Positions 36,001-45,000 of a stretch of 64,000 bases of DNA are shown here, in pieces. The position numbers are program-made. The first letter of the stretch is position 1; every line of letters begins with the position of its first letter. Source of the stretch: Gemmatimonadota bacterium (GTDB lineage Bacteria; Gemmatimonadota; Gemmatimonadetes; Longimicrobiales; Gaopeijiaceae); the NCBI GenBank assembly GCA_039589315.1, contig JBDHHQ010000006.1:73010-137009 (forward strand). The letters are read 5' to 3'.

Positions 36001-39000
36001 GTTCGTCAGCTCGGGTAGGCTGAGGGACTCCACTGCCCGGTAGCTCGCGCCGACCCCGATGCGGAATATCGGCGTGACGTTCAGCATGATGTTCGCGGCC
36101 GGCTCCACCACGAAGAACCCGCTGTAGAACCCCGCGAGAGAGTTCGACGGGAAGTAGGTGGCTCCGCCGCCTCCCAGTAGCACGGCCAGGGACACGTGCA
36201 CGAGCTCGTTGGGACGGTTCACGTACTCGAGGTCCAGCCCGCCGTACCCCATCTCGAGGGCGTCGAAGGCGAGGTGAGCCTGATTGGTGAGCCCGTACCC
36301 GCCGCCACCGAGCACGAGGGACTCGTTGATGATCCAGCCGCCCCGGCCGCCTACGAAGAACCCGAACTGCTCGTTGATCTCGGTGAACTTGAGGACGGGA
36401 GCACCGAAGCCGCCGCTCCGGATCGGCCCGTCCACGAGGGTCTGCTGCTGGGCTTGAACCGCCCCAGGCAGCAGCGCCAGGATCCCGACGATGACGATTC
36501 GCTTCATGGCCCCCTCCTCCCGGTCCTGCTCGGCCCATACGACTGTGTCTCGCCCATGGCTCTGTGCACCATCCGTGCCGTCAGTGCCGTCCCTCGCCGG
36601 ATCCCGGCCCGGGCGGCCGTCTGACGGCCGGGGAGGCGCTCGATCGGGTCGTTGGGAGGACTCCCCGGCCCGGAGCAGTGGCTCAGTCCGCTCGGGACGT
36701 CCCGTGGATCGTCCTCCCTGGAGGACAGCGGTGTACGACCTGGAAGATACCCGGACGCCACCCGGGTCGGGTGACGGCGAGAGCCCCCTTGAGTCCCCGG
36801 GTGACCTCTAGACGGTCCCCGTCCTGGCCACGGAAACGTCTGCGGCCGCTGCCGCCCGGTGAGCCGCAGGAATCTGCACGGTGAGCGTCGTACCGAGCCC
36901 CGGCCGGCTGCGCACCTGGACGCGGCCCCCCAGGTACCCGGCTCGCTCGCGCATGCCCACGAGACCGAAGCTGTGGCCGGTGGACGCCGACACGGTGGTG
37001 GGGTCGAAACCCTTGCCGTCGTCGCTGATCTCCGCCACCACGCTGTCGCCGGTCGCCCGGATCGACACATCGATGTGGGAGGCGTCGGCGTGGCGCACCG
37101 CGTTGTTGAGGGCCTCCTGGACAATGCGGTAGAGGGTGAGCTGGGCGTCGGTGGTGAGCCGCGAGTTCACCGCTTCGGTCCGGCAGTCGATGGGGAGGCC
37201 GCTGACCTCCGAGAGCAGCCGGGCGTGGGCGCTTACCGCAGCCGCCAGGCCGAGCTCGTCCAGCTCCGGCGGGCGGAGACGTCGGGCGACCTTACGGACG
37301 CCCTCCATGGCAACGACGATCTCGCTCCGGACCGTCTCGAGGGCTCGGCTTCCGGCAGGCTGGGGCAAGCGGGCCGCCGCCCTGAGGTGCAGCAGGGTCG
37401 TGGCCAGGACCTGGGCGGTGTCGTCATAGAGCTCCCGCGACAGCCACATCCGCTCCCGCTCTTCCGCTTCCAGCACCATGATCGCCAGCTCCCGCTGCCG
37501 TCGGCGGCCTTTGGCCAGGCCGTCCAACATGCCGTTGAAGACGGTCGTGAGGCGCCGGAGGTTGTCGTCCGCAAGGGGGGAGAGGGCGCAGCGGGCGTCG
37601 AGCTCACCCTGCTCGACACTTCGCGCCGTGGCCTCGATGGGCGCCAGGGGCGACAGCGCGAGGCGGACCAGAACGGCATTGGCGGTCGCCGTGATGATCA
37701 CGGCCAGCAGGACCGAGGCTCCGACCACGCCCAGCATGAGCACGGTGTCGACCCCTTCGGCGGTCCGTAGCGTGAGCCAGGCGGCCAGGACGGCCACGAG
37801 GCCCACGAAGAGGGAGTTGGCAACGACGATCTTGTGGTATAGCGGGAACCGCAGGAACCGGCGCACCACGCCCAAGTCGGTCAACCGACCGATACCCCGG
37901 CGTCCTGCGCCGTCCTGCCCGGAACCACCGGGTGCGCTGCCTTCGATTCGCCGCACCGTTCGAAAGGCCTACCACCTCCGGCCGACGAACCACGTGTCGG
38001 GTCCACCTGGCTGGAGCTCGGGAAAGGCGGATCGGGGGATTCCCGACCGTTTCGTCCAAAATGCATTCGAGGACGCGGGGCAGGTGTCGGGAGATGGACC
38101 CGCGGCGCTGTGGGGGATTTCCTGTGTCGATTGGACCGGATGTCTCGGGTTGGCGAGGCGGAGGGACGTCCCGAGACACGACGGGGAGACTCCGCTCAGG
38201 GGCTCCTGAGCACCAGGGCGCCTGCCGCCTGGTCGTAGGTGACCAGCGCGACGTGTCGCGGAAGGAGCTCGACGGTCCTGACCAGCGACAGACCGTCCCG
38301 CGCGGCGGGAGCATCCGGTCCGTCCGGACGGAAGCTCACCTCTATCCGGTGGGACCCGGCGGCCATCGGGATCTCGTGGAACACGTAGATGGGCCGATCC
38401 TGCCTGGCTCCGGCCGCGCTCACCAACGTATCGGTCGCCATCTCTCCGTCCAGGGCTATCTGGAGCCGGTAAGGCGTGCTCCGACCCTCGCAGATCGTAT
38501 CCCTCTGCATGTGCACGGGGAGTCGGGCACGCTCCTCATCGGTGATGGGTCGGCACGCAGCATCGGGCTCGCTCCGGTATCGCCAGGCAATCCGGACCAG
38601 AGCGTCGTCCGGGTCGCCCGGGGTATAGGGCACGCGGGAAAGGGCTGCGATGGCCACCGCCATGACCCCCGAGACGGCGAGGGCGATGAGCTTGCCGCCG
38701 GTGCTCACGCCACGCTCCCCGGCGTCCCGGCCCGGTCACGAGTCGTCTCGCACTCCGTGTCGAGCTCGATGGCGTCCTCCGCCTCCTGCCGTGCCAGCTC
38801 GGCCAACTCCGCGCGGAACGCGGTGACCGCACGCGCGATCTGCATGGCCTCTCCCTCCCCGGCGTACGCCAGGCGCACCCGTTTCTTGTCTACGCGGGGC
38901 TTCAACTCGGCCTCGCGGTCGTGATAGACCCGGGCCTCGAGCCACTTCACGCCCTCACGGTTCCAGCAGTCCCGGGGAGGGCAGGAAGCCACGATCACGC

Positions 39001-42000: not shown

Positions 42001-45000
42001 GACGCTCATGGTGGAGTGGGCCATGTGGACCGGGCGCGCCGACGTGCTGTTCACGTCGTACGTGCCACTGATGGCCCACCCGATCTACTACCTGGGGATC
42101 ATCCTGTTCGCGGTGGGCGCGCTCATCGTGACGGCCATCTTCTTCGGATCCCTGGTCGTGGCCAAGAAGGAGAAGACGTACGAGGGCTCCATGCCGCTCG
42201 TGACGTTCGGCGCCCTGACCGCCGCCATCATCGCCGTCATCACCCTGCTTCACGGCGCCATCATCTACATCCCCACCTTCCTGTGGTCCCTCGGCATGGT
42301 AACCGTGGATCCACAGATCTACCGCCTGATCTGGTGGGGCCTGGGCCACTCCTCCCAACAGATCAACGTGGCGGCCATGGTCTCCATCTGGTACCTGCTG
42401 GGGGCCCTCACCGTAGGCGCGGTGGTGCTCAACGAGAAGATCAGCCGCGCGGCCTTCGTGCTGTACGTCGCCTTCATCTCCATGGCCTCGGCGCACCATC
42501 TTCTGGTGGATCCGGGCATGGGGGCCGCGTGGAAGGTCTGGAACACCAGCTACTTCATGTACATGGCGGTGCTGGCCAGCATGATCCACGGCTTCACGGT
42601 TCCGGCCGGCGTCGAGCTCGGGCAGCGGCTGCGGGGATTCACCCAGGGCGTCTTCGGCTGGCTGAAGAAGGCGCCGTGGGGGGATCCGGGATTCAGCTCG
42701 TTGGCGTTCTCGCTCGTGATCTTCGGATTCGTGGGCGGCATCACCGGCGTCACGTTCGGTACCGAGCAGATCAACATCATCGCCCACAACACGCTGAGGA
42801 TCCCGGGGCACTTCCACGCCACTGTCGTGTCGGGAACCGCCATGGCCTTCATGGGCGTCACCTACTACGTGATCCCGCTGATCTTCCGGAAGCAGGTCTC
42901 CTTTTACGCGATGGCCAGGTGGCAGCCGTACATCTTCTCCCTGGGGATGCTCATCTTCTCGATGGCCATGACCTTCGCCGGCACGTTCGGGATTCCGCGC
43001 CGTCACTGGGACATCACCTTCACGGGTGCGCCCTGGGGCGTGGAGTATTCGCCGGCAGTGGACCTGCTGATCGGCGTCATGGCCGTGGGCGGCCTGCTGG
43101 CCGTCGTCGGTGGCGCCATGTACATCGTCGTCACCGTCGTGAGCGTGTTCTTCGGCAAGCCGTTGGGTGAGGTCAGCGCGGCCAATTTGGCCGGCAAGGT
43201 GCCCCCGGGCGTGTACGCTCCGCCGCGGGCAGCCCTGGAGGCCGCAGGTGCCGAGCCCGAGCTCCCCGAGCACGGGAGGCTGGGGATGGTGCCCGGCACC
43301 ATGATCCTCGTGGCGGTCTTCCTGGCCGCGTTCATCACGTACTACTTCGCCAACTGGAAGCTGCTCAGCTTCATCTGGAAGGTCGGCTAGGGCTGCGATG
43401 ACGCGGGGTGAGAAGTGGGCCGTGGGGGCGCTGGGCGCCCTGGCGGCGATAACGGTGAGCTGGTGGGCGCTGGCCCTGTGGCCGGTGCCCACCGGCGCGC
43501 CCGCCTGGCTGGAGCGCACGCGCCAGGTGTGCTTCGGCTCGACCGAGTCCGGTCTGCCGGACTCGGGAGGCTGGCTGCTGCTCGTGGGCCAGCCCACGAG
43601 CATGCTGGTGGCCATGTTCGTGATCTGGGGGGACGCCCTCACGGGCGGGGTCCGGGCGTTGGGGCGGTCTCTGCCGGGCCGCGTGGCCCTGGCCGCTACC
43701 CTTCTCCTGCTTCTGACGGGAACGGTGGGGGCTGGCGTCCGGGTGGCCAGCGCTCAGCCCGACGCGATCATCCTGGACGATCCGACCCTGCCGCCGGAGA
43801 CGTATCCGCGCCTCGACCGGGAGGCACCCACCCTGGCGCTCGTGGACCAGCGGGGTGAGCTGATCACGTTGGGGCGATTTGCCGGCCGCACGGTCCTGGT
43901 GACGTTCGCCTTCGGCCACTGCGAGACCATCTGCCCGGTGGTGGTCCACAACGCGTTGGAGGCGGCAGCAGCGGTGCCGGAGCTGGACCCGGCGGTCGTG
44001 GTCATCACCCTGGATCCGTGGCGGGACACGCCGGCTCGGCTCCCCCACATCGCCGGGCAGTGGGGCCTCGGCGACGACACCTTCCTCTTGAGCGGCTCCG
44101 TCGCCGCGGTCGAGGGTGTCCTCGACGATTGGAACGTCGCGCGGGAGCGGGACGAGCGCACGGGTGACGTGACGCACCCGGCCCTCGTCTACATCCTCGA
44201 CCGCACGGGGCGCATCGCCTACGCCACCACCGGCGACCCCCAGTCCATGGTGGCACTGGCGTTGAGGCATTAAGCCCGCCTCGTTGACGCGCTCGGGCGG
44301 GTTTGCCGCCAGGGAGTCGGTCCGGCAGTCGGCGTTGTAGGCGGACCGGTGCGGGGGAAGGCCGACGGCCTGTTCATCAACACCACCGGCCTCGGCGTCT
44401 TGGAGGACGGCTTCCGTCCGGACCCCTCGGGCGCGCGCCCGGGGGACGTGGTGCTGGTGAGCGGCCCCCTGGGGCGGCACGGCATTGCCATCATGGCGGC
44501 GCGGGAGGGCCTGGCCTTCGACGTCGAGCTCGAGAGCGACACGGCGTCCCTCTTCCCGCTGGTCCACGCGCTTCGCCAAGCGGCGGGGGCCGGCGTGCGG
44601 ACGATGAGGGATCCCACCCGGGGCGGGCTGGCCAGCGCGTTGAACGAGATCGCCGCGTCGTCGGGAGTGGGCGTGGAGCTGGTGGAGCACACCGTGCCTC
44701 TGCCGGGTCCCGTCGCGGCCGCTTGCGAGATGTTGGGCCTGGACCCCCTTTATGTGGCCAATGAAGGCGTGCTCACCGCCATCGTGGCACCGGAGGCTGC
44801 GGGCGAGGCCCTGTCTGCATTGCGTGCACATCCGCTCGGCGCAGAGGCCGCGCTGATCGGGAGGGTCGTGGAAGCGCACCCTGGCATGGTCGTCCTCCGC
44901 ACCGGCTTGGGGGGCACGCGAGTCGTGGACATGCTGCCCGGCGACCAGCTGCCCCGCATCTGCTGAAGCGAGGACGAGAAGAGCACCGAGGATTCGAGAA

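Follow-up and report, generated by a model that had tools for sequence, protein, structure and literature searches.

A 64,000-nucleotide stretch of a Gemmatimonadota genome (the window, along which all positions are counted) holds an operon for an eNOR-type NO reductase and, divergent from it, the genes of a cytochrome b-FeS fusion protein and a small partner, which together we call the module. An earlier note on this DNA took the eNOR to be invariably paired with the fusion, and the fusion to form a redox module dedicated to it. How far does this pairing reach, and what might the module do?

The eNOR operon and the genes divergent from it

The cluster comprises the following features.

38196..38708, minus strand: small partner gene, 170 aa, no Pfam/NCBIfam family
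38705..40273, minus strand: cytochrome b-FeS fusion gene, 522 aa; Pfam Cytochrome_B, Fer4 and FlpD all above cut-off
40321..40340, no strand: imperfect palindrome, consensus TTATCATGAnnATATGATAA, in the divergent promoter region; candidate operator for the adjacent Rrf2 regulator
40375..40815, plus strand: Rrf2-family Fe-S regulator, three Cys, IscR/NsrR-like
40866..41036, plus strand: 56-aa single-helix membrane protein, overlooked in the earlier note; candidate small eNOR subunit
41052..41627, plus strand: eNOR subunit II (COX2), with CuA ligands and channel residue Glu21
41624..43390, plus strand: eNOR subunit I (COX1), main branch; Gln246 replaces the cross-linked Tyr
43398..44273, plus strand: SCO1/SenC copper chaperone, N-terminal membrane domain; CxxxC and His intact

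The fusion is given in the form that starts at the second Met (40273), which is the form present in the protein collection, and its residues are numbered from that Met.

Subunit I has all six His ligands of the haems and the active-site metal (His81, 242, 291, 292, 396 and 398) and, within GH242SSQQ246, carries Gln at the position of the cross-linked Tyr (H-x3-Q), as had been read before. This replacement marks eNORs (passages of PMC8756737; Dataset S1 of PMC11214002). GHxxQQ is present in all 70 complete subunit I ORFs (the window's and 69 from 80 fusion loci), although seven depart from the narrower GH[SA]SQQI that had been ascribed to every homologue. The CuA ligands of subunit II (His124, Cys159, Glu161, Cys163, His167 and Met170) are invariant in 69/69 sequences. 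K-channel-like residues of the window are Q246, Y257, S319, H322 and E21 of subunit II; those reported for the R. marinus eNOR are Q245, Y256, S318, H321 and E(II)21 (passages of PMC11214002). The Gln for Tyr, the six His, these channel residues and a CuA subunit are shared with the eNOR family described in passages of Murali et al. 2024 (PMC11214002), which do not mention a partner module, and sequence supports the assignment of the window enzyme to eNOR.

NO reduction, the absence of O2 reduction and haem As have been demonstrated solely for the R. marinus eNOR (passages of PMC11214002), which was purified as two bands with an a-type haem (passages of bioRxiv 2021.10.15.464467). Its exact residue numbers are those of Rhodothermus sp. 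proteins in a second eNOR branch (branch 2), found in haloarchaea and Rhodothermus. Active-site residues and metal ligands are identical between branch 2 and the main branch; by extrapolation, main-branch enzymes would reduce NO as well.

A small ORF akin to the 56-aa protein precedes subunit II in 62/78, 59/71 and 52/73 loci of three sets, as counted with a loose pattern for which at least one listed match is spurious, and it occurs in both eNOR branches. The protein is probably a small eNOR subunit, perhaps resembling subunit IIa of ba3 enzymes. The Rrf2 regulator is found in most, though not all, of 80 related loci. At least 14 of 18 palindrome positions are matched in 45 of the 77 related loci from which the consensus was itself derived, and in none in each of 10 shuffles; the window's own genome contains one match only. 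We infer that the Rrf2 protein may bind there. In line with the earlier note, NirK and NirS gave no match above meaningful scores in this genome, where the lone Cytochrom_D1 match over its cut-off spans just 112 of 368 positions.

Distribution of the module

The linkage claimed among close relatives was borne out: eNOR subunit II and the small protein each accompany 78 of 80 fusion loci, the misses stopping at contig edges. Its reach is wider than had been claimed, since main-branch eNOR loci of many phyla have the module (46 of the 48 that are well flanked); it also adjoins eNOR in Magnetospirillum (L099). At the genome level, the agreement between module and main-branch eNOR was near-exact in four lineages. 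A sample of 251 genomes gave 58 with both, 191 with neither and 2 with a single one; the others gave 12 with both and 189 with neither (n=201), 7 and 144 (n=151), and 6 and 78, plus 7 with branch-2 eNOR only (n=91). The sole fusion-only genome has a decayed locus (L208), and three bacterial eNOR loci without a nearby fusion carry it elsewhere in the genome.

The pairing is, however, neither invariable nor specific to eNOR. The module was found at none of 44 well-flanked branch-2 loci, and the fusion had no match in 6 of 14 Anaerolineae eNOR genomes; the module goes with one eNOR branch rather than with the whole family. Because branch-2 eNOR works without it, as the two-band R. marinus preparation illustrates, NO reduction as such does not depend on the module. 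Nothing is conserved in its place at branch-2 eNORs except subunit II and haem O synthase (47/80 clustered loci), and no replacement is conserved at seven Anaerolineae eNOR loci lacking the fusion. A cytochrome bd-like/cytochrome c cluster near one locus (L088) was rejected as a replacement, as the fusion lies elsewhere in that genome.

Within Anaerolineae, an intact module lies downstream of a ba3-type O2 reductase in 47/54 loci, the remainder being truncated. All 43 full-length ba3-linked fusions end in a class I cytochrome c (CxxCH, Pfam Cytochrom_C) and have every haem and Fe-S ligand intact. In two ba3 operons without the module (L363 and L364) the same cytochrome c persists as a free gene, in one of them adjoining a cytochrome b remnant. 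Since the module probably also serves these tyrosine-bearing oxygen reductases, it is not NO-specific. A redox module remains the best reading, but not one dedicated to eNOR.

These distributions bear on the idea that the Fe-S clusters of the fusion sense NO or O2, or that the gene is co-regulated with eNOR without any functional link. The Rrf2 regulator and the conserved palindrome between both arms would suit such a role; yet the fusion has no signalling domain, co-occurrence persists on different contigs or at a distance, decay is joint, and the four haem His are invariant in 135/135 diverse fusion sequences. We consider this explanation highly unlikely.

A cytochrome b with an Fe-S tail and a probably periplasmic partner

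According to sequence and models, the fusion has a di-haem core of six-helix cytochrome b6 and a subunit IV-like part (haem ligands His85, 99, 186 and 200), followed by a 2[4Fe-4S] ferredoxin (Cys304-350) and an MvhD/FlpD domain (Cys388, 406, 431 and 436). Its nearest solved relatives are cytochrome b6, and the predicted structure of a naturally fused homologue (pTM 0.91) matches bc1/b6f cytochrome b, in agreement with the earlier note. The invariance asserted for all its ligands holds for the haem His and nearly for the ferredoxin Cys (seven of eight in 135/135 sequences, the remaining one in 134/135), but the four MvhD Cys are complete in only 113/135, and three Anaerolineales eNOR-linked copies lack them.

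Fold, haem His and the ef-helix region are common to the fusion, to b6f cytochrome b6 plus subunit IV and to bc1 cytochrome b. Unlike these, the fusion has no Rieske protein (no family match among the cluster's proteins scanned with Pfam/NCBIfam) and no haem cn Cys (CxGG; His36 in the window, mostly Gln, Arg, His or Tyr in relatives), its PEWY motif is degenerate, and the chain extends into Fe-S domains, predicted to be cytoplasmic. At the Qo-motif site, placed by eye against the subunit IV pattern, the window has L249-D250-V251-F252 rather than a PEWY/PDWY-type motif; across 135 fusions D occurs in 126, W in 66 and F in 83, and the first position is variable.

A rival explanation is a Rieske-less quinol bifurcation, close to a proposal in passages of a 2026 preprint on Ferrigenium (bioRxiv 10.64898/2026.01.22.701106). 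Of the two electrons of a quinol oxidized at a Qo-like site, one would leave for cytochrome c/CuA, while the other would run inward along bL, bH and the Fe-S tail and reduce NAD+ or ferredoxin, with NO or O2 reduction as the driver. Retention of the subunit IV-like part with its acidic Qo residue (Asp250), the closeness to cytochrome b6 and an NAD-binding paralogue are consistent with this. The Qo proline is not conserved, however, there is no haem cn Cys and no Qi His position, the cluster ORFs include no Rieske gene, the small domain has no evident high-potential one-electron acceptor, and most of the sampled hosts are probably not autotrophs needing reverse flow. Bifurcation is thus an unlikely account.

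The tail matches the C-terminal ferredoxin/MvhD region of HdrA, through which electrons enter Hdr complexes. HdrA (HdrA2, HdrABC-MvhAGD) is the best family match for residues ~285-500, though far below family cut-offs, and unlike HdrA the fusion lacks the FAD domain and is joined to cytochrome b. In the window's genome an FlpD search returned a single copy, the fusion itself, and no second MvhD. A proteobacterial duplicate has exchanged the tail for Fer2-FAD-NAD domains, and in one operon (L295) the small protein is its sole companion.

The small partner has one N-terminal membrane helix followed by a beta-sandwich (model, pLDDT 93.7), with a Cys52/Cys73 pair and a P-x-(H/N)-M-R loop. Conservation across 155 sequences is 85% for Cys52, 90% for Met67 and 86% for Cys73. 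Foldseek gave no match at E 0.001, Atlas neighbours were all unnamed, fold comparison returned only generic beta-sandwiches (best Z 7.8), and no known redox cofactor was located. In 108 of 109 representatives longer than 620 aa, this domain is a C-terminal extension of the fusion. Prediction of a complex of both proteins with eNOR subunit II scored 0.00, with controls not folded, and speaks neither for nor against such a complex.

Parts of this picture are already in print. The fusion family is very probably the 'PDWF-FeS clade' of Kao and Hunte 2014 (passages of PMC4122944), in which cytochrome b is fused to 4Fe-4S and MvhD domains without a Rieske protein, as in the window, although the window has L-D-V-F for the eponymous motif. 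Those passages name three proteins in the clade and give no function; they contain no small partner, cytochrome c fusion or haem-copper link, and 'eNOR' is absent from the main text. They also describe the Sulfolobales SoxABCD/SoxM supercomplexes, where a cytochrome b homologue is likewise genetically tied to a haem-copper oxidase, but these lack an Fe-S tail and work with a Rieske protein and a copper carrier; the window fusion matches SoxC weakly. The pairing with eNOR has been published for one genus. Passages of the preprint (bioRxiv 10.64898/2026.01.22.701106) report two types of cytochrome b-[Fe-S] protein in the eNOR operon of Ferrigenium straubiae, detect them in the proteome and propose a supercomplex; the window has the ferredoxin-MvhD type only, and the term MvhD does not occur in those passages. 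The preprint describes the genes as 'rather unusual' and suggests them as markers of Ferrigenium, yet in our survey they are standard in the main eNOR branch. Large cytochrome b proteins form a 'subfamily H' of unknown function (PMC5600118), which may include the fusion family. Geobacter CbcBA was rejected as an analogue, being a hydrogenase-type cytochrome b. Literature searches found no functional or biochemical study of the module, nor did passages of PMC4986455 deal with it.

Proposed electron input to CuA enzymes

We propose, with a probability of roughly 55%, that fusion and small partner together make up a module that spans the membrane and, without a Rieske protein, supplies electrons to CuA-bearing haem-copper enzymes of B-family descent, serving main-branch eNOR here and ba3-type O2 reductase in Anaerolineae. 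The Fe-S domains would lie on the cytoplasmic side and the beta-sandwich in the periplasm. Electrons from a low-potential cytoplasmic donor, NAD(P)H or ferredoxin, would enter through the MvhD [2Fe-2S] centre and the ferredoxin, cross the membrane by way of bH and then bL, and reach CuA through a cytochrome c that the beta-sandwich holds; in the paralogue with the [2Fe-2S]-FAD-NAD tail, input from NAD(P)H or ferredoxin may be direct. Electron flow from inside to outside would undo the charge separation that the terminal enzyme achieves, making the pair a sink for NO (or O2) rather than an energy-conserving chain. The Anaerolineae cytochrome c fusion supports electron delivery to CuA, and the small-domain fusion, the tight co-inheritance, the NAD-tailed duplicate and the HdrA-like tail also speak for this reading. 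Against it stand the lack of the module in branch 2, the 18 of 31 ba3-like genes of the Anaerolineae sample without an adjoining fusion, and the loss of MvhD Cys in three copies. The window's cluster, moreover, encodes neither a cytochrome c, which few eNOR loci have, nor a cytoplasmic donor, the genome has no second MvhD and already encodes an alternative complex III subunit, and the small domain shows no known redox cofactor.

The company of SCO fits maturation too: the chaperone is found at 45/48 well-flanked main-branch loci and at 5/44 of branch 2, and thus co-segregates with the module. As a maturation or reactivation reductase, the module would let a small flow of electrons out of the cytoplasm, so that SCO, CuA thiols, copper or the binuclear centre stay reduced; cbb3 oxidase is served in this way by CcoG, and N2O reductase by NosR. 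Its place among assembly genes, the two SCO genes of ba3 loci, and the Chloroflexota loci where the fusion comes after a DsbD_2 protein and a heavy-metal P-type ATPase would agree with this, as would the periplasmic Cys pair, the CcoG-like order of membrane part, ferredoxin, helix and periplasmic sandwich, and a separate quinol to cytochrome c route in the genome. The class I cytochrome c fusion, however, points to a catalytic electron path; no CcoG/FixG-NosR-NapH family was among the Pfam/NCBIfam matches listed; the Cys pair does not follow SCO, since Bacteroidota lost the pair and kept SCO intact; and branch-2 eNOR shares the metal ligands but does without the module. A maturation role is therefore rather doubtful.

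The electron-input reading can be taken further, if only tentatively. The module may stand in for complex III without a Rieske protein, in some lineages as a single chain, and connect CuA enzymes directly to NAD(P)H/ferredoxin of the cytoplasm or to quinol. The majority of environmental eNORs would then depend on it, so that the main branch, possibly an uncoupled NO sink or an enzyme for another substrate, would not work in the cell as does the R. marinus enzyme, the basis of the function assigned to the family; the quinol variant would amount to bifurcation without any Rieske centre.

eNOR is a common and long mis-annotated source of N2O, and the single biochemical proof of its activity comes from the branch without the module. 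As a marker, the module tells the two branches apart; for the main branch it may be the electron donor or else a factor in assembly. If our proposal is correct, the cytochrome b clade that was described in 2014 with no function would gain one, and reaching a CuA enzyme without a Rieske protein would add a new design to those of respiratory chains.

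The locus and the architecture of the module

The genes of the fusion (cytochrome b, 2[4Fe-4S] ferredoxin and MvhD/FlpD) and of the small protein, together the module, were found beside eNOR, the haem-copper NO reductase type, as an earlier note had described, with one 56-aa ORF added that it had overlooked.

Features of the window locus
38196-38708, minus strand: small protein, 170 aa, no family
38705-40273, minus strand: fusion, 522 aa, above-threshold matches to the Pfam families Cytochrome_B, Fer4 and FlpD
40321-40340: imperfect palindrome
40866-41036, plus strand: single-helix ORF, 56 aa, before subunit II; look-alikes in most eNOR loci
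plus strand: genes for an Rrf2 regulator, COX2, COX1 and SCO

The palindrome recurs in 45/77 related loci, the same loci from which its consensus was derived, and in 0 in each of 10 shuffles. Subunit I has His242 and, where oxygen reductases carry the cross-linked Tyr, Gln246; its Tyr257, Ser319 and His322, with Glu21 of subunit II, agree with those given as channel residues of the R. marinus eNOR, so the sequence bears out the eNOR assignment. The closest relatives of the locus are labelled Gemmatimonadota. Its own genome holds three further COX1 loci (GHPEVY motif in both of the two checked), a clade II NosZ and an alternative complex III subunit; we found in it no convincing NirK or NirS, and no cytochrome b or FlpD domain beyond the fusion.

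The membrane part of the fusion is nearest to cytochrome b6 (E 4e-44) and is followed by a subunit IV-like stretch; the model of a natural homologue with the small domain fused (pTM 0.91) matches bc1/b6f cytochrome b. Across 135 diverse fusion sequences, all four haem His and seven of the eight ferredoxin Cys never vary and the eighth Cys is kept in 134/135, much as the earlier note held for all ligands, but the four MvhD Cys are complete in only 113/135 and were lost in three Anaerolineales copies. With motif positions assigned by the canonical patterns, these sequences have neither a haem cn Cys nor a Qi His, and PEWY is degenerated to x-D-x-F. A count of six helices would leave the Fe-S tail cytoplasmic and put the small domain, one further helix on, outside. 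The small protein is modelled as a helix and a beta-sandwich, for which structure matches were not telling. Of the best 150 matches, 109 representatives exceed 620 aa, and 108 of these have the small domain fused at the C-terminus, so the two proteins form one unit. At one Nitrospinota locus (L143:3312-7147) the cytochrome b-ferredoxin-MvhD gene occurs twice in tandem, with the small gene in between; these copies, with an NAD-type duplicate elsewhere, hint at a cytochrome b heterodimer.

Several neighbouring features were also noted. Directly 3′ of the SCO stop codon, 44274-44966 (plus strand) encodes a HypE-like protein with AIRS_C as its sole domain match and without the N-terminal half, probably a gene remnant. 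A HisKA_3 sensor kinase with HAMP (36808-37956, minus strand) lies downstream of the small gene, a position shared only by the closest relative, L001. Read by eye, 30394-34950 encodes an ArsR regulator, two YeeE/YedE-type membrane proteins, a metallo-beta-lactamase/rhodanese protein and a sulfide:quinone reductase-like flavoprotein (30914-32185, minus strand). SCO proteins (window 43398-43800; L135:7011-7982 and L088:1083-1931 in other genomes) have an additional membrane segment marked by a conserved C-F/Y-x-x-D motif; it stands at the N-terminus in the window protein and at the C-terminus in the proteobacterial ones. Many genomes of the own-phylum sample (G012-G254) have another haem-copper subunit I (for example G254:C3:1756639-1758135), 31-35% identical to that of the window, without the fusion.

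Two branches of eNOR

Eighty close fusion loci held eNOR subunit II in 78 and the small gene in 78, the misses being contig ends. To avoid a similarity-based choice, eNOR loci were then selected by active-site pattern (80 with flanks among the 120 matches listed). The 48 well-flanked loci of the main branch, that of the window (at least 3 kb upstream and at least 7 kb downstream; 31 less well flanked loci excluded), had the fusion in 46 and the small domain in 47, among the matches listed, and span alpha-, beta-, gamma- and deltaproteobacteria, Myxococcota, Planctomycetota, Acidobacteriota, Bacteroidota, Nitrospinota and Chloroflexota. For three bacterial eNOR loci lacking an adjacent fusion, the gene lies at another place in the same genome; in one further genome only an NAD-binding paralogue was found, and in another nothing. 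Across 251 genomes of the own phylum, 58 had both fusion and eNOR, 191 neither, one a divergent eNOR alone and one a decayed module alone; two further whole-genome samples gave 12 both and 189 neither (n=201), and 7 both and 144 neither (n=151). These are plain counts because related genomes are not independent.

The second branch (haloarchaea, Rhodothermales, Salinibacter and some Gemmatimonadota) has the same active-site residues and forms its own clade (31/31 labelled sequences, FastTree support 1.0). Neither fusion nor small domain was found in its 80 loci, 44 of them well flanked, and no fusion in twelve of its genomes searched whole. In a class sample of 91 genomes, all 7 with the second branch were without the fusion, and all 6 with the main branch had it adjoining. 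Near the base of the main branch, among mostly Chloroflexota sequences, the module is patchy: 8/14 eNOR genomes had a fusion match (sample of 141). The link thus reaches more phyla than the earlier note saw, yet its claim of an invariable pairing with eNOR fails on the second branch and on 6 of these 14 genomes. SCO genes track the module (45/48 main-branch versus 5/44 second-branch well-flanked loci) and in Chloroflexota its neighbours include copper-delivery genes, which would also fit a role in maturation or reactivation, to us a less probable reading than electron supply to CuA.

Second-branch proteins of a Rhodothermus sp. have Q245, Y256, S318, H321 and subunit II E21, the exact R. marinus numbers, so the R. 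marinus eNOR, the only one shown to reduce NO, very probably lacks the module; its preparation had two bands and a-type haem (bioRxiv 2021.10.15.464467). The enzyme purified from Magnetospirillum, to judge from locus L099 of that genus, would belong to the main branch; according to Murali et al. 2024, no function was ever assigned to it (PMC11214002). The first half of that text and its Dataset S1 name no partner of eNOR.

A divergent COX1-like protein of roughly 460-500 aa, which has GGGH and HYH motifs but no His-His pair and is called 'eNOR scaffold protein' in a Ferrigenium preprint (bioRxiv 10.64898/2026.01.22.701106), occurs in 19/48 well-flanked main-branch loci (among others L091:13914-15332, L085:10394-11845 and L293:10716-12104), and in L099 with a second subunit II-like gene. 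Three Bacteroidota loci have subunit II fused to cytochrome c (L082:2354-3274, L118:7328-8248, L126:8173-9093) and have lost both Cys of the small domain. A few eNORs whose motif is GHGAQQ are extended at the N-terminus by about 170 aa (start codons as read) and have no module (L367:7938-10175, L369:8505-10688, L371:7828-10050); in three of four, no subunit II was detected alongside.

The module beside ba3-type oxygen reductases

Anaerolineae carry the module behind a subunit I that has the motif WFTGHPLVYFW and so keeps the Tyr; among solved structures Thermus ba3 is the best match to this subunit. This arrangement holds for 47/54 loci, mostly close kin, the other 7 being without upstream DNA, and it contradicts a module dedicated to eNOR. 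All 43 full-length copies so linked have intact haem and Fe-S ligands and a C-terminal class I cytochrome c domain. A ba3-like gene adjoins 13 of the 21 fusion copies in a sample of the class and eNOR adjoins 7, the remaining copy being on another contig; 18/31 ba3-like genes have no fusion alongside. Two module-less ba3 operons keep the same cytochrome c as a free gene, and one adjoins a cytochrome b remnant. A tree built on the cytochrome b part nests the ba3-linked form within eNOR-linked ones (UFBoot 99 with the Gemmatimonadota/Acidobacteriota group), with one distant outgroup that leaves the direction of transfer undecided; a Fer2-FAD-NAD form arises within the proteobacterial group.

An SQR-like gene follows the ba3-linked module in 19/54 loci, and a 141-aa lipoprotein-like gene (for example L292:10734-11159) in 44/54.

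A proposed electron path

The module is real and widespread, with more kinds of host than the earlier note knew, and is tied to one eNOR branch rather than to NO; it is partly anticipated in print. The PDWF-FeS clade of Kao and Hunte 2014 has exactly this architecture, without Rieske genes and with no function given; eNOR is absent from the main text (PMC4122944). The Ferrigenium preprint describes an eNOR operon that contains cytochrome b of both types, terms these proteins rather unusual and proposes a supercomplex that reduces NAD+ (bioRxiv 10.64898/2026.01.22.701106). Quinol bifurcation towards NAD+ seems improbable to us, as the cluster offers no Rieske-like acceptor. We found no functional study of the module in the literature covered, outside which lay subscription journals and several supplements.

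The longest natural chain runs from cytochrome b through ferredoxin, MvhD, helix and beta-sandwich to cytochrome c and is encoded beside a CuA enzyme; it would therefore most simply be a route that carries electrons to CuA. Its inner, Fe-S end is similar to the port through which electrons enter Hdr complexes, and in a duplicate a NAD(P)H-oxidising type of tail takes the place of this end, which favours flow from inside to outside. We give such a path, from a cytoplasmic donor, a probability of about 0.55. Against it, the window cluster lacks a cytochrome c gene or donor, other eNOR loci have few cytochrome c genes, and some eNORs and ba3-like enzymes do without the module.

By this path to CuA, electrons would enter at the inner Fe-S end and leave outward to the terminal enzyme, using up charge separation that the enzyme makes, which would suit a system that serves as a sink for NO or O2. 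The genome of the window, with NosZ and no nitrite reductase found, would fit a scavenging role.
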